The notes: generated by a model from the letters alone, not told the origin. DNA of 64,000 nucleotides from Clostridia bacterium (GCA_017429165.1 JAFRPL010000037.1:3009-67008); one strand, 5' to 3'; shown: positions 46,861-56,307, numbered from the stretch's first letter. Numbers and translations: made by a program.

Positions 46861-46891
46861 AAAACATGCCCAAACGCGGGCATGTTTTTTT
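46861..46891 (+). terminator. Rho-independent terminator of trkAH (left boundary of the phage-derived cassette)
   Basis: Perfect 11-bp stem AAAACATGCCC / GGGCATGTTTT, 6-nt loop, followed by a T-run. Confidence 0.85.
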
Positions 46892-46902
46892 GTGTAAGTA
46901 TA

Positions 46903-46916
46903 CGAACATATGTTCG
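46903..46916. promoter_or_regulatory. LexA (Cheo/SOS) box, perfect palindrome
   Basis: CGAACATATGTTCG equals the idealised Firmicutes LexA/DinR operator (CGAAC-N4-GTTCG). It is extended to the 16-bp palindrome ACGAACATATGTTCGT and lies 5 nt upstream of the -35 of the cassette promoter. Confidence 0.75.
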
Positions 46917-46921
46917 TTGCG

Positions 46922-46950
46922 TTGAAACGGCGCAAAACCGGGTTTAGAAT
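46922..46950 (+). promoter_or_regulatory. Sigma-A promoter of the phage-derived cassette
   Basis: TTGAAA (46922-46927), 17 nt, TAGAAT (46945-46950). The leader to the terS ATG is about 85 nt and GC-rich. Confidence 0.55.
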
Positions 46951-47040
46951 GAAAGTGTGACGGGCGGGACCGGATCGCAGCCGGCGCGGCCGAAGTCTTT
47001 TGCCCGCACAAAAACGGTAAGGCACAGAGAGGAGAAAGAA

Positions 47041-47397
47041 ATGAAAAAATACCCGTTTAAGATATCCTCGCTCGAAAACCTCATTGCGGATTATTTCGAC
47101 AAATATCTTTTGCAGAACCCCGCGACGGTACCCGATACCGAATCGCTCGCGGCTTACCTCGGCATCACGCGCGAAGAGCTCAATGAGCTTGAAAGCGGCA
47201 AGAACACTTCACGCGCGGTAAAAAACGCCAAGACGCGTATCGCCGCCGCTAAAAAGCAGTTGGCTTACCGCGGCAAGATACCCGCGGCAGTGCTTGCGTT
47301 CGATCTCAGGAACGACCACGGATACCGTGACAAGCCCGAGGATATGAACTGTTCCACGCTGATATTGCGCGGCCTGGCTGAAGAATGGAGCGAATAG
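47041..47397 (+). CDS. terS: Phage terminase small subunit (HTH type)
   Basis: Start moved to ATG 47041 behind AGAGGAGAAAGAA. PDTESLAAYLGITREELNELE is an HTH followed by AAVLAFDLRNDHGYRDK, matching the pattern of small terminases (xxEGLAxYLGIxxxTL ... IFxLKNxxGxxDK). Confidence 0.7.
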   Translation: MKKYPFKISSLENLIADYFDKYLLQNPATVPDTESLAAYLGITREELNELESGKNTSRAVKNAKTRIAAAKKQLAYRGKIPAAVLAFDLRNDHGYRDKPEDMNCSTLILRGLAEEWSE

Positions 47398-47403
47398 CAC
47401 GCT

Positions 47404-48753
47404 ATGCTGAAACAATTTGACATCCTTCCCAACCCCAAACAGCTGGAATTCTTTAAATCCAAAGCCAAATACACCGCTTACGGCGGCGCGCGAGGAGGCG
47501 GGAAATCGTGGGCGATGCGGATAAAGCTCGTACTTCTCGCCGCAAGGTACGCGGGTATAAACATACTGCTGCTTAGGCGCACTCTGGGGGAGCTGCGGGA
47601 AAACCACATCATTCCCCTGCGCGCGCTGCTGAACGGAGTCGCCGTTTACAAGGATTCGGCAAAAGAATTCGACTTTCCCAACGGCAGCCGCATCAAGCTC
47701 GGCTATCTCGATTCCGAATCGGACGTACTGCAGTATCAGGGCCAGGCGTACGAGGTCATAGGGATGGAGGAAGCCACGCAGTTCACTTATTTTCAGTTCC
47801 TGTGCCTTACCGAATGCAACCGCGTTTCCGGCTCGATGACCAAGCCGTTCACGCCGCGAATGTATTTCACCTGCAATCCCGGAGGAGTCGGCAACAACTG
47901 GGTAAAGCGGCTGTTCATAGACCGTGAATACCGCCTTAACGAAAACCCCGCCGATTACGTGTTCATAAAGAGTCTGGTGTACGACAACACGTTTCTTATG
48001 GAACACGACCCCGGATATCTGCGCACGCTCGAAGCCCTGCCCGAAACGCGAAAGCGCGCCATGCTTTACGGCGACTGGAATTCGTTCGAAGGTATGTTTT
48101 TCCCCGAATTCGACGAGGCGAAACACGTTATCCCCGACCTTCGTCCGTCTTCCGAATGGGTAAAGTTCCGCGCGCTCGATTACGGGCTGGATATGACCGC
48201 CTGCCTGTGGATCGCCGTCACGCCCGAACGACGACTGGTAGTTTACCGCGAGCTTTGCAAGCCGAATCTTATACTTTCGGAAGCAGCGGCGGCGATAATC
48301 AGAGCGACGCCCGAAAACGAGAATATCCGTTACACGGTGGCGTCGCCCGACCTTTGGAACAGGCGGCAGGACAGCGGCAAAAGCGGCGTGCAGATAATGA
48401 CCGAAGCGGGTCTGAAAGGACTGCGGCGCGCCGACAGCGCGCGTATACCGGGCTGGCGCGTGATGCGCGAATACCTGCGCCCGGGCGCCGAAGACGGAAT
48501 TCCTAAGCTGCATATCACGAGGTCGTGCAAAGAACTCATAAGGTGTCTCCCCTCTTTGGCTTTCGACCCGGATACGAGCGAGGACGCTTCGGACGCTCCG
48601 CACGACATAACGCACGCGCCTGAAGCGCTTCGCTACGCGGTGATGTCACGCGAACCGCGCTGCGAACCGAGGACACCGCCCGACACGGGCGGTACGTACA
48701 GTTTCGGCAGCCGCAGGATAAATGCCGGAAACGACGATTATTTTGAATGTTAG
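47404..48753 (+). CDS. terL: Phage terminase large subunit
   Basis: 449 aa. Walker A YGGARGGGKSWAM, Walker B-like ILLLRRT, coupling motif MEEAT, and a C-terminal nuclease-like region (ALDYGLD...DAPHDITHAPEALRY). Confidence 0.88.
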   Translation: MLKQFDILPNPKQLEFFKSKAKYTAYGGARGGGKSWAMRIKLVLLAARYAGINILLLRRTLGELRENHIIPLRALLNGVAVYKDSAKEFDFPNGSRIKLGYLDSESDVLQYQGQAYEVIGMEEATQFTYFQFLCLTECNRVSGSMTKPFTPRMYFTCNPGGVGNNWVKRLFIDREYRLNENPADYVFIKSLVYDNTFLMEHDPGYLRTLEALPETRKRAMLYGDWNSFEGMFFPEFDEAKHVIPDLRPSSEWVKFRALDYGLDMTACLWIAVTPERRLVVYRELCKPNLILSEAAAAIIRATPENENIRYTVASPDLWNRRQDSGKSGVQIMTEAGLKGLRRADSARIPGWRVMREYLRPGAEDGIPKLHITRSCKELIRCLPSLAFDPDTSEDASDAPHDITHAPEALRYAVMSREPRCEPRTPPDTGGTYSFGSRRINAGNDDYFEC

Positions 48754-48768
48754 GAGAAAACGACACGT

Positions 48769-50337
48769 ATGAAAAACAAAACTCCGACCACCGACGAATG
48801 GAAGCTTTACGAAAGCGGGAAAGAGTACAACACTTCGCTTGATCTGTACAACAAGGTCGCTTCCAACGAGCGGTTCTACCGCGGCGACCAGTGGGAAAGC
48901 GTGAGATCGGGCAATCTTCCTCGCCCGGTGTTCAACATCTTCAAGCGCATAATCAACTACTATTCCTCTTCCATACTTTCCACGTCCGTGGCAATGAAAT
49001 TCTCTTTCGCCGAACCTTTCGGCGAAGGACTTCCCGTCGGCAGAGAAACTGCCGCCGGCTACGAGAAGATGCTCAACGGCATCGCACAGCGGAGCTGGGA
49101 GGATATGCGCATGGAAGAGCTTATGGACGACGCGCTCCACGATGCGGCGCTGAGCGGCGACGCGGTGGCGTACACCTACTGGGACGCCGGCGTAAAAACC
49201 GGCCAGGAGCTCAAAGGCGATTTCCGCACCGTGCTGGTGGATAACACCGACGTGTTTTTCGGGAACCCCAACAGCCGCTGCGTGCAGAAGCAGCCGTGGA
49301 TACTCATATCCGCGCGCGAACACGTAGACGACCTGAAAACCCAGGCGAGGCGCAACGGAAGACCGGAAGAAGAGATCGCAAAGATAAAGCCCGACACCGC
49401 GAACGACTGCGGCAGCGGCGATCTTTCGAAGATCGAGCTCGAAAACACCCGGTGCATTTCGCTCATAAAGCTGTGGCGGGGCGGGGACGGCAGGATCCGC
49501 TACCGCAAATCCACGCGCGACGCGGTGATATGCGGCGAGACCGAGACAGGGCTTCGCGATTACCCGATCGCCGTGATGAACTGGACGAAATCCAAGAATT
49601 CATGGCACGGCGAGGCTGTCGCGACCGGGCTGACCGAAAACCAGATATTCATCAACAAGGGCTACGCGATGGTGATGAAGCATATGATGGACACCGCTTT
49701 TTCCAAGGTGGTGTACGACGGTACCGTGCTCGAAGACTGGTCCAACCGCGTAGGCGAAGCGATCAAGGTCGACGGCCCGGTCAACGACGTCGCCAAAGTG
49801 ATACTCCCCGGGCAGATGCAGTCCGGTATGCTGGAAGTCATAAATATGGCCATGTCGGCGACCAAGGAATGCTTAGGCGCGACCGACACGGCTCTCGGCG
49901 ACGTGGAGCCCAACAACACTTCCGCCATCCTCGCGCTGCAAAAGGCGTCCACGCTTCCGCTTGAAAGCGTAAAGCGTCAGTTTTACCGCTTTATAGAAGA
50001 TATTGGGCTTGTGTGGCTCGATTTCATAACCGCCTATTACGGCGAGGGGCGCCTTATAGAAACGGAAGGCGGATACGCGCGTTTCAGTCTGGGTGAAAAA
50101 CGCGACGCGCTGTTCAAGTGCAGGATAGACGTCGGGCCTTCGGCGTACTGGTCCGAGATCGCCTGCCTGAACACGCTGGACAATCTGCTTCAGGGCGGAC
50201 ACATAAACATAATACAGTATCTTGAACGGCTGCCCGAAAACCTGCTGGCTTCCAAGGATCAGCTGATAAACGAGATACGGGAAAACTATGAGAAAGGTTT
50301 GACAGATGACAAAGAAACGATTGATGGAAATACTTGA
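48769..50337 (+). CDS. Phage portal protein (putative)
   Basis: 522 aa. The position directly after terL, the size, and the N-terminal NERFYRGDQW...LPRPVFNIFKRII block are typical of portal N-termini. RBS AGGAGA. Confidence 0.65.
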   Translation: MKNKTPTTDEWKLYESGKEYNTSLDLYNKVASNERFYRGDQWESVRSGNLPRPVFNIFKRIINYYSSSILSTSVAMKFSFAEPFGEGLPVGRETAAGYEKMLNGIAQRSWEDMRMEELMDDALHDAALSGDAVAYTYWDAGVKTGQELKGDFRTVLVDNTDVFFGNPNSRCVQKQPWILISAREHVDDLKTQARRNGRPEEEIAKIKPDTANDCGSGDLSKIELENTRCISLIKLWRGGDGRIRYRKSTRDAVICGETETGLRDYPIAVMNWTKSKNSWHGEAVATGLTENQIFINKGYAMVMKHMMDTAFSKVVYDGTVLEDWSNRVGEAIKVDGPVNDVAKVILPGQMQSGMLEVINMAMSATKECLGATDTALGDVEPNNTSAILALQKASTLPLESVKRQFYRFIEDIGLVWLDFITAYYGEGRLIETEGGYARFSLGEKRDALFKCRIDVGPSAYWSEIACLNTLDNLLQGGHINIIQYLERLPENLLASKDQLINEIRENYEKGLTDDKETIDGNT

Positions 50338-50833
50338 AGATCTCGCCGAAAGCGAAGGCAGATCCGCCGAGGCGTTTCTGCTCGACATTGCGGAAAAAGC
50401 CGAAAACGCGCGCAGCGAAAGGTTCAGATCGTACCCGCCCGAGCTTCAGACCGAAGCGGCGGAAGCCGAAAAGATAAAGCGCAGCTACCGTGAGGAAAAA
50501 CGCAGGATGCGCGAAAGAGAGCAGTTCGACAAAGAGCTCGAAACGTTCATCAAAGCTTTCCCCGGCGTTACGCCGGAAACGGTACCGCAGCGCGTCTGGG
50601 AAGACGTTGCGGACGGTATACCGCTCGCGTACGCTTACGCCTTTTCGGTCGCCGCCGGCGGCAAGACGAGCGACGAGATCAATGCACGGAACGAAGCGAG
50701 ATCAGTCCCCGTCGCGCCCGGCAGAGCCGAAGAGCCTGCTTTCACCGAAAGCGAAGTGGAAAAAATGCCTCCCGCAGCGGTGAAGAACAACTTTGCAAAG
50801 ATCATAAGTTCCATGAAAAAATGGAAATCATAA
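50306..50833 (+). CDS. Putative scaffolding protein
   Basis: 175 aa, highly charged and predicted helical (EAEKIKRSYREEKRRMREREQFDKELE). It lies between the portal and capsid genes and overlaps the portal end. Confidence 0.5.
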   Translation: MTKKRLMEILEDLAESEGRSAEAFLLDIAEKAENARSERFRSYPPELQTEAAEAEKIKRSYREEKRRMREREQFDKELETFIKAFPGVTPETVPQRVWEDVADGIPLAYAYAFSVAAGGKTSDEINARNEARSVPVAPGRAEEPAFTESEVEKMPPAAVKNNFAKIISSMKKWKS

Positions 50834-50848
50834 GAAAGGAACGGTAAA

Positions 50849-51673
50849 ATGTCCAATTACAATTCTATAGAAAAGATCATCTCCGCGGAAATACTCCGCA
50901 CCAACGAAGACAATCTCATTGCCAACAAAATATGCAACACCTCGTTCGCGGGCGATATAAAGAACTCCGGCGATTCGGTGACTTTCATCGGGCTCAACGA
51001 TCCCGCGGTGGGCAGCTACAACGGCACTGTCAGCTATGAAGAGATCGACGACAACGCCATAAAGCTCAACATCGACCAGGATAAGTACTTCGCTTTCAAG
51101 GTCAGCGATCTTGAGGCGCTGCGCAGCTCGATAGGGCTCAAGGATTCGCAGACCAAGCGCGCGAGCTACAACCTTAAAAAGAGCGTGGATTCATATGTGC
51201 TGGGCCTTTACGGACAGGCCGGGACCACGCTCGCTTCCGCGACGGTCACTCCCGCCAACGCGCTTCAGGTAGTCGCCGAAATGAAAGAGGCGCTCGAAAA
51301 AGCCAACGTCCCCGACGGCCAGTCGTGGATCGTCATCCCGCCTTTCCTCAAGACAAAGCTCATACTCGCCGGGATCAAGTTTTCGGTAAACGAAGGCGTA
51401 AACGGCACCGGCGCTATCGGCTACACCGACGAGCTGGGCTGCGATCTTTACGTTTCGAACCAGCTTTCCAACTACGGCACCACCTACTACGCGCTCGCCG
51501 GTTCGTATTCCGCCATCGGCTACGCCGAGCAGATACTCGACACCCAGGTCATCGACCGCATGGAAGATTCGTTCGACACCGCCGTGCGCGGCAGGATCGT
51601 CTTCGGGGCAAAAGTCATAAAGCCGGGCGAACTTGTCTGCGCTCCCGTCATCGACGGCGGAAACAGCATATAA
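50849..51673 (+). CDS. Putative major capsid protein
   Basis: 274 aa. Position after the scaffold gene, strong RBS, and a following stabilising hairpin region. No protease gene is present. The call rests on synteny and composition only. Confidence 0.55.
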   Translation: MSNYNSIEKIISAEILRTNEDNLIANKICNTSFAGDIKNSGDSVTFIGLNDPAVGSYNGTVSYEEIDDNAIKLNIDQDKYFAFKVSDLEALRSSIGLKDSQTKRASYNLKKSVDSYVLGLYGQAGTTLASATVTPANALQVVAEMKEALEKANVPDGQSWIVIPPFLKTKLILAGIKFSVNEGVNGTGAIGYTDELGCDLYVSNQLSNYGTTYYALAGSYSAIGYAEQILDTQVIDRMEDSFDTAVRGRIVFGAKVIKPGELVCAPVIDGGNSI

Positions 51674-51697
51674 ACTGACTGAAAGGAGAATAACACA

Positions 51698-52087
51698 ATG
51701 GCTATCACCGTAACCCCCACCTACGTCAACCCTTCCAACACCGCAAAGAATGCTGCTTTTGCGGAAGGCGTTTCCGAAACCGCCGGCACCGCCGAGACCT
51801 TTGAGACCGTCTTCCCCGCGAGCGACGAGACCTGCTACATAATGGTCAAGAACGGCAACGCCGCCACGGTCCAGGTCAAGCTGCTCGCCGCCAAGGAAAA
51901 CAACGGCTTCAGCGAAGTGAACCACACGCTCGCCAAGAACGGCATGTGCGTCTTCTCGGTCGAGTCCGGATTCGTTAAGAACGCTGACGGAAAAGTCTAC
52001 GTAAAAGTGACGCCCAACTCCGCTACGACCGTCAAATCCTGCGCCGTAGGCGTCGCCGCGATATATTCCGGCGTGACGACCGCTTAA
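51698..52087 (+). CDS. Phage-like structural protein, unassigned (decoration/head-fibre candidate)
   Basis: 129 aa. RBS AGGAGA. Beta-rich, Ala/Thr/Val-rich composition. Confidence 0.5.
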   Translation: MAITVTPTYVNPSNTAKNAAFAEGVSETAGTAETFETVFPASDETCYIMVKNGNAATVQVKLLAAKENNGFSEVNHTLAKNGMCVFSVESGFVKNADGKVYVKVTPNSATTVKSCAVGVAAIYSGVTTA

Positions 52088-52123
52088 GGGTCCGGAAATC
52101 CGACCCCTCAAGGGCAAAAAAAT

Positions 52124-52155
52124 GCGCGTTCCGCGGCGAAAAGCCGCGGACGCGC
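52124..52155 (+). other. GC-rich hairpin after the capsid-region genes (mRNA stabiliser/attenuator candidate)
   Basis: GCGCGTTCCGCGG (52124-52136) / CCGCGGACGCGC (52144-52155) with a single bulge. No T-tract follows. Confidence 0.45.
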
Positions 52156-52174
52156 CATAACGAAAGGAGCTATT

Positions 52175-52591
52175 ATGAACGATAACTGGGTGATAAAGAC
52201 CGAGGTGAGCGTAAGCGCGGAAAAGATATTTTCCATAATGACTTCGTTCCTGGGTATCAACGGGAGTCTGGGGGCGCAGGAGCAGATTTCCGAACGTTGC
52301 CGCCCCGGCGCGCTCGACTGCATAAACGCGGCGATCCACGAAGTGAACAAGATAAACCGCGAATTTTCGAATAACGATATCACGCCGTCCGTTGTTACGA
52401 GCTTTGAAGAATCCGTCACAGCGGTATCGGCGGTCGCGTACAACGTTCTTCCGCTAAGAGCGGCGACATTCCTGGCGCTTCGCTACGACGTAAAGACTGC
52501 GCAGATCCTGCAAAAGATATACGATATGACTTTTGAGATCTATCACGGCGCGGCTCCGGCGAAAGCGGGGCCGATAAGCGAGGCGTACTGA
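52175..52591 (+). CDS. Phage-like protein, head-tail connector/adaptor candidate
   Basis: 138 aa. RBS AGGAG. The size, position and helical N-terminal half are as in gp6/gp4-type adaptors. No motif-level support. Confidence 0.45.
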   Translation: MNDNWVIKTEVSVSAEKIFSIMTSFLGINGSLGAQEQISERCRPGALDCINAAIHEVNKINREFSNNDITPSVVTSFEESVTAVSAVAYNVLPLRAATFLALRYDVKTAQILQKIYDMTFEIYHGAAPAKAGPISEAY

Positions 52592-54285
52592 TGGCTAAGA
52601 GAAGCGTTTATTACAGATCGTTCGGCGGACTTGACCGGTACGCCAAGGACGCGATATGCGCCGAAAGCGCCGTCGATTTCGTCGTCGATGCGGGCGGTTC
52701 CCTCTGCAAAAGCAAAGGGTTCGAAAACTTTATCCGTTCGCCGGCGGCAATCAAGGCGTGCTGGGCGGGTACGCTTTGCGGCAGGAACGCGATAGTGTTC
52801 CTTGCAGGCGGAAACATCTACGACTGCGATCCGGACAATATGACGATGACTTCGGAAGACGCATCCGGCGCGTCGAGAGCCGCGTTTTTTAAATACGAAG
52901 ACAAGCTCTACGCGCTTTGCGACACCGGATATTTCCGCTACGACGGCAGCACGTTCGAAAGCGCAACCGGATACATACCGCTTATTTCGGTATCCACGGC
53001 GCCTGACGGCGAAGGGACTGCGTACGAAGCGGTCAATATGCTGAGTTCCGCGAGAAGGCAGCAATTTTCACCCAACGGGACCGACGCATGCTTTCATCTT
53101 GCCGAAAAGGACATAAGCGCCGTGATCAAAGTGACGCTCGGGGGCGAGGAATGCGCCGCGAGCGACTACAGCTGCGACACGGCGAACGGCACGGTCACGA
53201 TGACGAATATCCCGGACGCCGGCGTGAACACGCTCGAGATCACATACGACACGGGCAGTTCGGGCAGGAGCGATTTCTGCAAGTTCAAGAACGCCATGCT
53301 TTTCGGCTCCAACGCCGACGAGCGCGTTTTTCTGTGGAACAATCCCGACCGCCCGTGCATACGGATCCACAGCGAGCTTGCCGACGGCGTGCCGAGCGCC
53401 GAGTATTTCCCCGTAACGAACTACACTTCGGTCGGCAGCGCGCCCATAACCGATATGGTCCAGGAATACGACCGGCAGCTGATATTCACCGCCGATTCTG
53501 CGTATTATTCGTACTGCGAGATGAAGACGATGACTTCGGGAAAAACAGTCGCTTCGTTCCCGGTATATCCGCTTCATCCGCGCAAAGGGAACCTGATATA
53601 CGGCAGTTCGTGCGTTATGAACGGGCTGGCGGCGACTCTGTGCCGAGACGGAGTGAATATCTGGCGGCCTTCCACTGTTGAAAACGAAAAGAACGCGGTA
53701 TGCATTTCGGGCGCGGTGAACGATATGATACTTCCCGAAACGTACGCTTACGCAACGGGCGCAAAGCTATTTGAACTTCCCTCTTTGAGCGAGCTGTATT
53801 TTGTGGGCGCGACGATGACGGCGGTGTTCAATTACGCCACGCAGAAATGGTACAGACTTTCCGCAGGCGGTATGACTAACGTGTTCGAAGCGTTCGGCAG
53901 CGTTTTCGCCGTTAAGGGCGAATACATAAAGCGCATGACTTCATCCGAGCGTTCGGGCAGCGCAAGTTACAAAACGCATTACAGCGAGCTGGGAAGCTGT
54001 GCGCTTAAAGACGTTCATTTCATAAACCTCACTGTAGAAGCCGGTTACGTCACCGCCGGGAGCGTGAAAGTATACTGGCCCGGGGAAAGCGGGGTTTTCA
54101 GTTCGGAACAGTATTTCGAGGTCGATCAGGCGCTTCACGGGAACGCGGTATCTGTCGCGCTGCCGTTCTATATCCCCAACGTGAGCGGTATTTCGGTGGA
54201 GTTTAAATGTCCGCCCGGCAAGGAACTGAAGATACTGGGATACGGCATCACATTTGACGACAAAGGAGTAAACAATGGATTATAA
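52591..54285 (+). CDS. Large phage-like virion protein, unassigned (tail hub/nozzle candidate)
   Basis: 564 aa. Its start overlaps the previous stop (TGATG). Beta-rich sequence with recurring aromatic-Gly motifs. Function inferred only from position. Confidence 0.45.
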   Translation: MAKRSVYYRSFGGLDRYAKDAICAESAVDFVVDAGGSLCKSKGFENFIRSPAAIKACWAGTLCGRNAIVFLAGGNIYDCDPDNMTMTSEDASGASRAAFFKYEDKLYALCDTGYFRYDGSTFESATGYIPLISVSTAPDGEGTAYEAVNMLSSARRQQFSPNGTDACFHLAEKDISAVIKVTLGGEECAASDYSCDTANGTVTMTNIPDAGVNTLEITYDTGSSGRSDFCKFKNAMLFGSNADERVFLWNNPDRPCIRIHSELADGVPSAEYFPVTNYTSVGSAPITDMVQEYDRQLIFTADSAYYSYCEMKTMTSGKTVASFPVYPLHPRKGNLIYGSSCVMNGLAATLCRDGVNIWRPSTVENEKNAVCISGAVNDMILPETYAYATGAKLFELPSLSELYFVGATMTAVFNYATQKWYRLSAGGMTNVFEAFGSVFAVKGEYIKRMTSSERSGSASYKTHYSELGSCALKDVHFINLTVEAGYVTAGSVKVYWPGESGVFSSEQYFEVDQALHGNAVSVALPFYIPNVSGISVEFKCPPGKELKILGYGITFDDKGVNNGL

Positions 54286-55567
54286 GGATTATCTGGACGA
54301 GGCAAAAAAGAAATTGGGCGAAACAGACGCGCTCAAGAATTACCGACAGTTTTACGAAAGCGCCGTAAAGCGCATAAAAGAACGCCGCGACAGTGAACTT
54401 GCGGAGATCGAAAAATCGTACCGCGACGGGCTGAACGAGGCGTCTGCGCAGGACCGCATACTCGCCAAAAATGCCGATCAGTATATGGCGTCGCGCGGGC
54501 TCGCGCGTTCCGGCGAAGCCGAGCAGGAATATATCGACCGTTCGCTGGCGTTTGCAAAAAAGGCGACCTCGCTCGCCGAAGGCAGGCGCAAAAGCGAAGA
54601 TGCCGCAAGGGCCGGCGCCGAAAACGCTATTTCCGTGCTGGACAAAGACTACGCCGAAAAGGCAGACGCCGAAAATCAGCGCGCCTACGCCGAAGCCGCG
54701 GAAGAGGCGAAGACGAGGTACGAAGCCGACCGCGATAACGAGCGTTACAGGCGCGAGACCGAAAGCGAGCGTGCCGAGCGCGAATACAATATCACGCTGG
54801 CGCGCATAAAGGCCGAGCTCGCCGAAGCCGCGGCTCAAAAGGAAAGAGAGTTCAACGCTTCCGAAGCAGCCAAAAAGCGCGAATACGAAGCGGCAGAGGC
54901 TGAAAAGAAACGCGCGTACGAAGCGAGTGAAGCCGAAAAGAAGCGCCGGTACGAGCTGGAGAAGGCGAAAGCTTCGAGCTCTTCGCAAAGTTCCGCAAGC
55001 GGAAACAAAAGCGGCGGATACGTTCCCAAACAGACCGCATCTCAGCTTGCAAAGCAGATAGTATCAAGCCGCACCGCGTCGGGGACCGTGAGCACCGTGA
55101 GCGAAGCCGCGGCCGTTAACGATTACCTCAAAGAGCTCGAAAGCGAAAACGGCATAGACGAAAGCTATATGCGCGACCTTAAGCTGGCGCTCGGAAGCTA
55201 CGGTTTCTTCGTCCCCACGCAGTCTGACTATAAGGCGAGCGAGATCGCCGCGCAATCGGAAAAAACGTATAAAACCGTCTATGACCGAGCGCGCGCCGAC
55301 TACAGGCGCGCAGGCGACCCGGACGCGGACAAAAAGGCGAAAACCGCCGCGCAAAACGCGCAGATGCAGTTCTGCCGTGAAAAATGCGAAACATACGAGC
55401 AGTTCGTGAGATGCTGCCGCGAATGCGGTATAAGCGACGCCGTCATAGCGCGCTTTACGGCAAGCAATCCGCCGGAAAAGAGCGCCAAAGCGACTGAAAG
55501 CGCGGTATCCGGCGCCGTGAGCGCGGCGAAAACCGCGGCGGGCGGCAAGGAAAACACGTTGAAATAG
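54275..55567 (+). CDS. Coiled-coil phage-like protein (needle/plug or internal ejection protein candidate)
   Basis: 430 aa. The N-terminal roughly 230 aa are E/A/K/R-rich heptad-like sequence that includes 3 x 11-aa repeats. Then a Ser-rich linker and a Cys-containing C-terminal domain (FCREKCETYEQFVRCCRECG). Confidence 0.45.
   Translation: MDYKDYLDEAKKKLGETDALKNYRQFYESAVKRIKERRDSELAEIEKSYRDGLNEASAQDRILAKNADQYMASRGLARSGEAEQEYIDRSLAFAKKATSLAEGRRKSEDAARAGAENAISVLDKDYAEKADAENQRAYAEAAEEAKTRYEADRDNERYRRETESERAEREYNITLARIKAELAEAAAQKEREFNASEAAKKREYEAAEAEKKRAYEASEAEKKRRYELEKAKASSSSQSSASGNKSGGYVPKQTASQLAKQIVSSRTASGTVSTVSEAAAVNDYLKELESENGIDESYMRDLKLALGSYGFFVPTQSDYKASEIAAQSEKTYKTVYDRARADYRRAGDPDADKKAKTAAQNAQMQFCREKCETYEQFVRCCRECGISDAVIARFTASNPPEKSAKATESAVSGAVSAAKTAAGGKENTLK
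54857..54955 (+). repeat. 3 x 33-bp in-frame tandem repeat inside the coiled-coil gene
   Basis: Units 54857-54889, 54890-54922 and 54923-54955 encode ASEAAKKREYE / AAEAEKKRAYE / ASEAEKKRRYE. Confidence 0.85.
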
Positions 55568-55580
55568 CGGGAGGCCGAAT

Positions 55581-55883
55581 ATGGATCTGTACGAATACAT
55601 AAAACCGGAACTCATCTCGCTGCTGCCGCTGTTGTATATCATAGGCGAAACGCTCAAAAGATCGTCGGTAGCGGATTGGAAGATCCCTTTCATACTCGGC
55701 ATAGCGGGCATTGCGCTTGCGCTCGTATGGCTCGTCGCGTGCGGCGTTCCCGAAAGCGCGGACGGGCTCGTAAAGCTAGTCGCCTGCGGAGCCGCACAAG
55801 GGCTTTTGTGTGCGGGAGCAACTGTCTACGCGCACAACCTTGTCAAACAATACGGCAAAAGGAACGGTGACGAAGATACATGA
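55581..55883 (+). CDS. Phage holin (clostridial Hol44 / phage_holin_5-like family)
   Basis: 100 aa. KPELISLLPLLYIIGETLKRS..DWKIPFILGIAGIALALVWL......AQGLLCAGATVYAHNLVKQYGK matches the conserved layout of that holin family as I recall it. Charged C-terminal tail. Confidence 0.7.
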   Translation: MDLYEYIKPELISLLPLLYIIGETLKRSSVADWKIPFILGIAGIALALVWLVACGVPESADGLVKLVACGAAQGLLCAGATVYAHNLVKQYGKRNGDEDT

Positions 55884-55950
55884 AGACGTTTATAAGCTGT
55901 ATAAAGAGGGCGTTTGAGCTTATAGCGGCTCTTATTTACGAGATAGGGGC

Positions 55951-56268
55951 ATGAGCTATATCACAGAGGCGCTTGCGATAATATTCTCTTCCTCGGGCGT
56001 TATAGGCGCGGTGATCGCAGCGCTGATGCGCAGGGCGATGAGAAACGCCGCCGAAGACGCCGAACGCAGACGGCGCGAATACGTGGAAGAGCAGCTTTCG
56101 CGCTTTGAGCTCGATCACGCGGCGAACGAGCTGCTGATAGCGCTCGCCCGCTACGCCCGCAAGCTTTGCACCGAAACCGAGCTTGAGATCGCCGAAGCCA
56201 ACTATACCGCCGCAGTCAACAAAGCCGATATGACGCTCAAGAAGAACTACGTTTCGCACAAAAAATGA
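55951..56268 (+). CDS. Small N-terminally membrane-anchored coiled-coil protein (lysis-accessory candidate)
   Basis: 105 aa with a TM segment (ALAIIFSSSGVIGAVIAALM) followed by a charged helix. Weak RBS. Last gene before the terminator. Confidence 0.45.
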   Translation: MSYITEALAIIFSSSGVIGAVIAALMRRAMRNAAEDAERRRREYVEEQLSRFELDHAANELLIALARYARKLCTETELEIAEANYTAAVNKADMTLKKNYVSHKK

Positions 56269-56269
56269 G

Positions 56270-56307
56270 AAAAAGCACGCAAGGTATACGCTTTGCGTGC
56301 TTTTTTT
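56270..56307. terminator. Bidirectional rho-independent terminator (right boundary of the cassette)
   Basis: GCACGCAA (56275-56282) / TTGCGTGC (56293-56300), flanked by an A-run upstream and T7 downstream. Confidence 0.8.

Follow-up and report, generated by a model that had tools for sequence, protein, structure and literature searches.

A predicted LexA operator at the promoter of a podovirus-type, gene transfer agent-like operon in uncultured gut Clostridia

Packaging of host DNA into particles resembling gene transfer agents (GTAs) is common in gut Oscillospiraceae and Ruminococcaceae (PMC12946183), and the closest described architecture to the operon analysed here is that of FpGTA of Faecalibacterium prausnitzii (Borodovich et al., Nat Commun 2026, PMC12946183). 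Operon I of FpGTA (about 10 kb) comprises terS, terL, portal, scaffold and capsid genes together with conserved hypothetical genes, has short-tailed (podovirus) parts, lacks integrase and replication genes, and is conserved genus-wide; a second operon contributes fibre, receptor-binding protein, holin and endolysin (PMC12946183). FpGTA particles of about 40 nm carry 8.4-8.9 kb of host DNA, and lysis takes place in late stationary phase; PMC12946183 makes no mention of regulation or of LexA.

The alphaproteobacterial GTAs (RcGTA and the Caulobacter GTA) are, like the cassette described below, domesticated and vertically inherited head-tail clusters with production tied to stress or DNA-damage circuitry, a tie that for the cassette is a prediction, but they are of siphovirus type and under indirect control via GafA/GafYZ, CtrA, quorum sensing and RogA. 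In Rhodobacter, LexA acts on the GTA indirectly. RogA of Caulobacter is a LexA-like repressor of GTA activators (PMC9632790). No report of a LexA operator on the promoter of a GTA structural operon was found in the GTA literature searched.

Precedents for phage-derived packaging genes under the direct control of LexA are SaPI operon I, GIL01 and the colicin operons. In the colicin operons of enterobacteria, a LexA box directly gates an operon ending in lysis of the producer cell, an altruistic form of release triggered by the SOS response; these operons consist of plasmid-borne toxin, immunity and lysis genes and encode no capsid. In SaPI operon I, a LexA box directly controls terS and the capsid-morphogenesis genes (Ubeda et al. 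2007, as cited in PMC3152322). It shares with the present cassette the status of a packaging operon of a phage-derived chromosomal element under a LexA box, which in SaPIs lets the SOS response induce packaging functions with no need for a late activator from a phage. As mobile satellites, SaPIs have an integrase, the Stl repressor and a replicon, and take their capsids from a helper phage. The cassette has none of these features; capsid, portal and tail are encoded within it, and its inheritance is vertical. The tectivirus GIL01 of Bacillus thuringiensis is kept silent by host LexA and not by a CI-type repressor (PMC4551915); GIL01 is a self-replicating linear plasmid prophage on which LexA requires the phage co-factor gp7 and occupies several boxes in promoter P1, whereas the cassette is not a phage.

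The DNA under study is a stretch of 64,000 nucleotides (GCA_017429165.1, JAFRPL010000037.1:3009-67008; C34:3009-67008), hereafter the window, from the 2.16-Mb, 37-contig genome (53% G+C) of an uncultured Clostridia bacterium assembled from a metagenome. Between host genes for the potassium transporter component TrkH (Pfam PF02386, E 1e-56; preceded by trkA) and glycerate kinase lies a cassette of 11 co-directional genes (47041-56268) separated by gaps of at most 24 nt save for two of 87 nt and 67 nt. Its features and those of the region ahead of it are as follows.

46861-46896, plus strand: intrinsic terminator of trkH (terminator scan; hairpin 46861-46888 of 11 pairs, then a T-tract)
46902-46917, no strand assigned: predicted LexA (SOS, Cheo-type) operator, ACGAACATATGTTCGT with core CGAACATATGTTCG, the top-scoring site of the genome
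46922-46950, plus strand: predicted cassette promoter (10 of 12 matches in a consensus scan; phylogenetic footprint)
46957-47040, plus strand: putative 5' leader, GC-rich at about 46960-47010, with the ribosome-binding site GGAG ahead of the ATG
47041-47397, plus strand: terS, P22 gp3-like small terminase, 118 aa (PF16677, E 2.8e-10; phrog_606)
47404-48753, plus strand: terL, large terminase, 449 aa (PHROG 979 and 2; Terminase_3, Terminase_6N)
48769-50337, plus strand: P22-like portal, 522 aa (phrog_156; PF16510 P22_portal)
50306-50833, plus strand: 175-aa protein in the scaffold position (weak match to phrog_14606; syntenic in all type A loci)
50849-51673, plus strand: major capsid protein, 274 aa (phrog_267, E 9e-40; PF25209)
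51698-52591, plus strand: two small proteins, 129 aa and 138 aa (no family match; dN/dS 0.10-0.21)
52591-54285, plus strand: podovirus tail nozzle or hub, 564 aa (AlphaFold model, pLDDT 88.6; Foldseek)
54275-55567, plus strand: 430-aa virion-associated protein, role unassigned (no family match; syntenic)
55581-55883, plus strand: holin, 100 aa (phrog_1129, E 3e-16; PF16079, E 1e-20)
55951-56268, plus strand: 105-aa coiled-coil protein (faint holin-like PHROG match)
56268-56307, plus strand: operon terminator (18 pairs; terminator scan)

The modelled 564-aa protein matches the tail nozzles of Pa223, P22 (gp10), T7 (gp12) and Sf6 in the PDB (Foldseek, E 4e-18 to 1e-12, TM 0.5-0.7), and, since it is by fold a podovirus nozzle or hub, the cassette encodes a short tail. 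From their positions in the operon, the 175-aa protein (dN/dS 0.06-0.18) may function as a scaffold, and the 129-aa and 138-aa proteins as head-completion or adaptor proteins. The capsid gene has dN/dS of 0.01-0.03, its product being only about 32% identical to the nearest phage capsid proteins and about 30% identical to homologues in other families of the order; the 430-aa gene is the fastest-evolving of the cassette (dN/dS 0.19-0.27). Domain and family searches recognised neither an endolysin nor a fibre in the cassette, and found no integrase, repressor or replication domains in its proteins. The statement of the initial annotation that the cassette encodes no regulator of its own is borne out by PHROG and Pfam searches, in which no cassette protein has a regulator domain. 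Gene order and size are the same as in FpGTA operon I, and both are of podovirus type (with a P22/T7-type nozzle here); the hosts appear to belong to the same bacterial order (Oscillospiraceae, Eubacteriales), but the holin gene is in the main operon of the cassette and in the second operon of FpGTA. A genome search for a second operon with the CGGGTTTAnAAT promoter of the cassette returned one unrelated match only.

Of 151 genomes sampled from the family, 138 have a large terminase gene when both cassette types are counted, nearly always as a single copy, and terL identity follows genome relatedness across the family. The type A cassette, to which the window belongs, retains its full gene order in 8 genera, with capsid identity of 65-72% or more. 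Other genera have a terL of about 50% identity in a different setting; about 40 type B loci (L061-L101) have a single-copy terL 57-63% identical to that of the window and no LexA boxes, and no other cassette genes are recognisable near type B terL. In comparisons with the three closest species, each of the 11 cassette genes has dN/dS of 0.01-0.27 against the two nearest, and dS of the cassette equals that of the flanking trkA and trkH. The carriers on record are uncultured Oscillospiraceae, Eubacteriales and "Ruminococcus sp." metagenome-assembled genomes from ruminants, chickens and humans. By these measures the cassette is a vertically inherited podovirus-type operon under purifying selection, of the GTA kind. 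It had been taken for a temperate element, a description that does not hold for a single-copy cassette, syntenic across genera, that has the dS of its flanking genes and lacks integrase and replication genes; what is present is not a complete self-replicating phage genome but a 9.2-kb structural operon only, chromosomally fixed and family-wide.

Ahead of this operon, the 14-nt sequence CGAACATATGTTCG (46903-46916) agrees at 14 of 14 positions with the LexA/Cheo consensus CGAAC-N4-GTTCG with an A/T-rich spacer, and the perfect 16-bp palindrome ACGAACATATGTTCGT encloses it; at 23.8 bits it has the highest score in a matrix scan of the genome. The -35 element TTGAAA (46922-46927) begins after a gap of 5 nt and is followed by a 17-nt spacer, ending in conserved CGGGTT (46939-46944), and by the -10 element TAGAAT (46945-46950), from which transcription is predicted to start near 46957. 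This arrangement is that of the initial annotation, which had described an idealised 14-nt operator within a 16-bp palindrome (confirmed by reading the sequence) situated after the trkH terminator and 5 nt before TTGAAA-17-TAGAAT (the terminator and consensus scans agree). Its designation of TTGAAA-17-TAGAAT as the promoter is supported by genus-wide conservation of TTGAnn-N17-TAnAAT, and its designation of this promoter as the only one of the cassette by the remaining gaps, which are too small for an obvious promoter, barring those of 87 nt and 67 nt. A hairpin in the 5' leader (-27.4 kcal/mol) was considered as a regulatory element and dropped, being no more stable than the folds of shuffled sequences (z = -0.88). 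An Rfam scan of this region of the window and of five SOS loci yielded nothing at gathering score.

A motif scan agrees with the earlier observation that GAAC-N4-GTTC occurs only once in the 64-kb window, but this loose core is not significant by itself: 1.34 occurrences are expected by chance per 64 kb, and 74 of 100 shuffles contain at least one. The significance of the site derives instead from the rarity of the exact 14-mer, the distribution of scores in the genome, and conservation at orthologous loci. The exact 14-mer has three copies in 2.16 Mb, all intergenic, versus about 0.008 expected for one 14-mer. The genome has 9 sites that reach 20 bits, against 0 in three shuffles, and 19 that reach 16 bits, against 3-4 in three shuffles, counts that are partly circular because the score matrix was derived from the same 9 clearest sites; unrelated loci totalling 736 kb, which provide a control independent of this, contain one site of at least 16 bits.

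The genome encodes a single, canonical LexA (TIGR00498, 219 bits against a cut-off of 111; PF01726 DNA-binding domain and PF00717 S24 peptidase) with the Ala-Gly site and the Ser/Lys motifs evident in its sequence. Two of four canonical SOS loci carry the motif: recA (TIGR02012, 549 bits) has TGAACATTAGTTCG 4 nt 3' of the -10 element of its promoter TTGACA..TAGAAT, and, of the two boxes at the gene for DNA polymerase IV, CGAACATTTGTTCT overlaps the -35 element and AGAACAAATGTTCG lies 8 nt past the -10 element. The uvrBA operon and lexA have no LexA box (best scores 5.0 and 5.9 bits). Thus, a scan upstream of recA, lexA and uvrAB, proposed at the outset as a way to confirm the operator motif, succeeds at recA (and dinB) but not at lexA and uvrAB, where there is no operator rather than a different one. 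As uvrBA and lexA are box-less, the regulon is non-canonical, and the SOS regulon predicted for this organism is small and atypical. The lexA gene lies directly behind other genes (L119, G000 C35:33500-41000) and may lack autoregulation; the uvrBA operon is at L141/L143 (G000 C37:63781-68503).

The site in the window is, judged by these comparisons, a genuine LexA-type operator of this organism. The opposite supposition, that the palindrome is due to chance or serves a factor unrelated to LexA, whether in restriction, in recombination or in the termination of trkH, can appeal to the chance frequency of the GAAC-N4-GTTC core, about 1.3 per 64 kb; it is contradicted by agreement at 14 of 14 consensus positions, by identity to boxes at other SOS-type promoters of the genome, and by conservation of the box at orthologous loci together with its independent gain in another genus, which effectively refute it as far as sequence comparison can.

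A box is located 110-140 nt 5' of terS in the window and in four related species: L033 (97% TerL identity), L034 (91%), L035 (74%) and L036 (75%), that is, in five of five species of the sub-clade. In an alignment of the five loci (A1), 12 of 14 box positions are invariant, the two that vary being central spacer bases. Besides the box, the T-tract, the TTGA of the -35 element and a CGGGTnTAnAAT.AAAG.GT block stand out as conserved islands; apart from these, the intergenic region has diverged in the four related species. Relative to these loci, in the order given above, dS is 0.2-0.5, about 1, and 1.1-2.0. With synonymous divergence saturated or almost so among these genomes, the box is under selection. 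The footprint TTGA..N..CGGGTnTAnAAT.AAAG.GT is retained in nine species of the genus, whether or not a LexA box is present. A second box is present in L035 and L036, located 14 nt past the -10 element and 62 nt from the first; the lineage of the window does not have this second box proximal to the transcription start, and alignment A1 has a GC-rich segment in its stead.

LexA boxes accompany about 7 of 60 non-redundant cassette loci, leaving about 53 of 60 without. The sister species L037, L099, L038 and L040 have the same near-consensus promoter and no LexA box, and in L037, L099 and L038 the -35 element is adjoined by CGGACTTTT in place of the box. Outside the sub-clade, boxes are found among the approximately 60 non-redundant loci only in G147 and G132, of another genus, where CGAACAAATGTGCT lies within the spacer of a family-type promoter; G147 has three more upstream. 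The different promoter position indicates that the box of G147 and G132 is an independent gain. Thus, LexA wiring of the cassette appears to be lineage-specific and to have arisen at least twice, in different promoter positions. The most likely account is that, within one small lineage, a functional LexA operator was added to the sole promoter of a domesticated podovirus-type operon for GTA-like particles.

The placement of the box deserves attention. Other strong SOS promoters of the genome have the box in the spacer, over the -35 element, or just 3' of the -10 element, whereas the box in the window is centred near -48, upstream of the -35 element, and stops 5 nt short of it, so that any overlap of bound LexA with the -35 element hinges on the size of the footprint. 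Inspection by eye found no alternative promoter with acceptable -35/-10 spacing that would give the box a canonical position. Among the predicted SOS promoters of this genome, the box in the window has the least canonical position for a repressor.

LexA as an activator is rare. The position upstream of the -35 element resembles an activator site, and the canonical second box has been lost from the lineage of the window, features that would suit a LexA-bound site acting positively (activator-like, at about -48) or neutrally, as the decaying remnant of a two-box arrangement. Although dS is about 1, the three species with a single box keep it intact or nearly so, which points to selection that is still acting, and a positive or neutral role is accordingly rated very improbable.

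Repression by LexA is the preferred reading of the operator. LexA likely binds the box and lowers initiation at the cassette promoter, and damage-triggered cleavage would free the packaging, head, tail and holin transcript, with release of particles by lysis. In the undamaged cell, a LexA dimer would reach the upstream edge of the -35 element and the UP-element region, hindering RNA polymerase; upon DNA damage, RecA filaments would provoke self-cleavage of LexA, and the promoter would fire. The resulting 9.2-kb transcript would supply terminase, portal, capsid, short tail and holin, and the cell would package DNA into small capsids and then lyse. Because its match to the consensus is perfect, LexA may leave this box later than nearly all other SOS sites, which would confine a lethal programme to severe damage. 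Binding, repression, the site of initiation and particle production are steps that we infer from the sequence, and in these uncultured Clostridia of the gut, a small group, particles are probably produced in response to DNA damage.

For GTA-like particles of the gut, the conserved and perfect LexA operator suggests a concrete trigger, DNA damage, the candidate agents being quinolones, other genotoxic drugs and oxidants derived from inflammation. The implication is that gene flow by way of capsids could increase in gut and rumen communities under antibiotic or host stress. The repeated, lineage-restricted gain of boxes would represent a domesticated viral machine being plugged into the stress circuitry of its host.

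LexA is probably not the sole layer of control. Another silencing control must exist in the box-less sister species, which have the same promoter and a holin, and silencing cannot in general rest with LexA, given that about 53 of 60 cassette loci are box-less; this other control may persist in the lineage of the window too. Thus, of the proposal that host LexA is the direct gatekeeper of the operon, the part that stands is the conserved LexA-type box at the promoter. Sole control by LexA does not follow: the box is upstream of the -35 element, the second box proximal to the transcription start is missing, and box-less sisters keep the promoter.

A candidate for indirect control is a gene for a 146-aa protein on a contig other than that of the cassette (C14:113622-114062, minus strand; L114:2123-2563). 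An identical box, CGAACATATGTTCG, lies about 90-100 nt upstream of this gene, with two more farther up (L114:2651, 2834, 2866). Among 30 orthologues, 25 are accompanied by a box that scores 18 bits or more and lies within 150 nt, in five of six sampled genera, and the box-bearing orthologues include those of species with a box-less cassette; the regulator is evidently a deeply conserved member of the predicted SOS regulon. The protein is similar to phrog_36, "transcriptional regulator" (E 5e-8), and its model (pLDDT 86) has structural neighbours among the sigma-70 region 4 and DUF1492 proteins of phages (E 2e-6 to 1e-2), those in BFVD annotated as such having E 2e-4 to 3e-2. It has no match in Pfam or NCBIfam, a fold search of the model against the PDB gave no significant match, and a tblastn search of phage records matched one unannotated record. 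One copy of the gene is present in each of 90 genomes among the 151 of the family, and it is distributed over exactly the 8 type A genera, being found in 0 of 7 genera without a type A cassette.

Proteins of the Ltr type (RinA, ArpU, LtrC, DUF1492) are small and basic and bind repeats upstream of terS (PMC3753634). They are encoded beside, and upstream of, the terS operon that they activate, whereas the 146-aa regulator is not linked to the cassette: in 80 loci examined, it was never within 10 kb of the cassette terL. In other genera, the cassette promoter is GGATGAAA-N17-TAnAAT with GGGAC(W5) direct repeats ahead of it. At L045, L050, L054, L103, L109 and others, 2-4 repeats of GGGAC or GGGAT plus five A/T are found 115-290 nt 5' of terS; their spacing of about 11 nt resembles an activator binding array.

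The main SOS input to the operon might then come from the LexA-repressed 146-aa regulator activating the terS promoter, in the manner of late activators in phages of Gram-positive bacteria, with LexA on the cassette box doing no more than fine-tuning and the box being a recent, feed-forward addition. The boxes of the regulator gene and of its orthologues, the phrog_36 match and sigma-70 region 4/DUF1492-like structural neighbours, the exact coincidence with the type A genera, and the presence before GGATGAAA-N17-TAnAAT of repeats in the kind of region that Ltr activators bind (PMC3753634) are all in its favour. The coupling is loose, however: in G080 and G106 (95-97% complete), the regulator is present with its box although terL and the capsid gene are both missing, and G077 has the cassette without the regulator. 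The absence of linkage, the acidic pI of 5.5 in contrast to the basic Ltr proteins (PMC3753634), and the lack of a Pfam or NCBIfam match also count against it, as does the promoter of the window, in which the -35 and -10 elements are both good and repeats are missing upstream, where the terminator directly adjoins the box. Relegation of the cassette box to fine-tuning is considered doubtful for these reasons.

A broader scheme, offered tentatively as a possibility that is less than probable, is that the 8 sampled genera of a clade of uncultured gut and rumen Oscillospirales share an SOS-triggered GTA that operates through a retained phage late-gene circuit. LexA, in place of CI, would repress the unlinked activator, the activator would act on the terS promoter via the GGGAC repeats, and at least two lineages, that of the window and that of G147 and G132, would independently have short-circuited this cascade through LexA boxes set directly on the terS promoter. 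If true, it would be the first regulatory logic described for a GTA of Firmicutes and would entail repeated rewiring from indirect to direct SOS control. Direct repression of the cassette by LexA remains the preferred reading for the window.

Several other loci came to light in these comparisons. On the minus strand, L116:2417 (G000 C10:59416) and L117:2766 (G000 C29:2766) are near-identical SOS promoters, TTGACA-aa-CGAACAAATGTTCT-g-TATAAT, with the box within the spacer. The approximately 300 nt of conserved sequence behind both have no ORF and no Rfam match, and in C10 are followed by an AAA_25 (RepA-like) gene; the transcripts may represent a non-coding RNA that the SOS response induces, or else a mobile-element leader. 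Two perfect LexA boxes, CGAACATATGTTCG and CGAACAAAAGTTCG, lie 26 nt apart (L118:1592 and 1618, G000 C11) about 220 nt 5' of mraZ-rsmH, the start of the cell-division cluster, and may tie division control to the SOS response. Another box, CGAACATTTGTTCT, is located 1 nt 3' of TATAAT between divergent genes for proteins of about 340 aa (L115:1185-3311, G000 C10:102681-104813), each with only a C-terminal HTH, LexA/sigma-70 region 4-like in one and ArsR-like in the other. Two unannotated "Bacteriophage sp." records from human faeces, both in the range of 6.8-9.6 kb, encode homologues of the capsid protein (MT836592.1, 29% identity) and of the 146-aa regulator (MT837452.1, 27% identity), and may be fragments of GTA-like elements deposited as phages.
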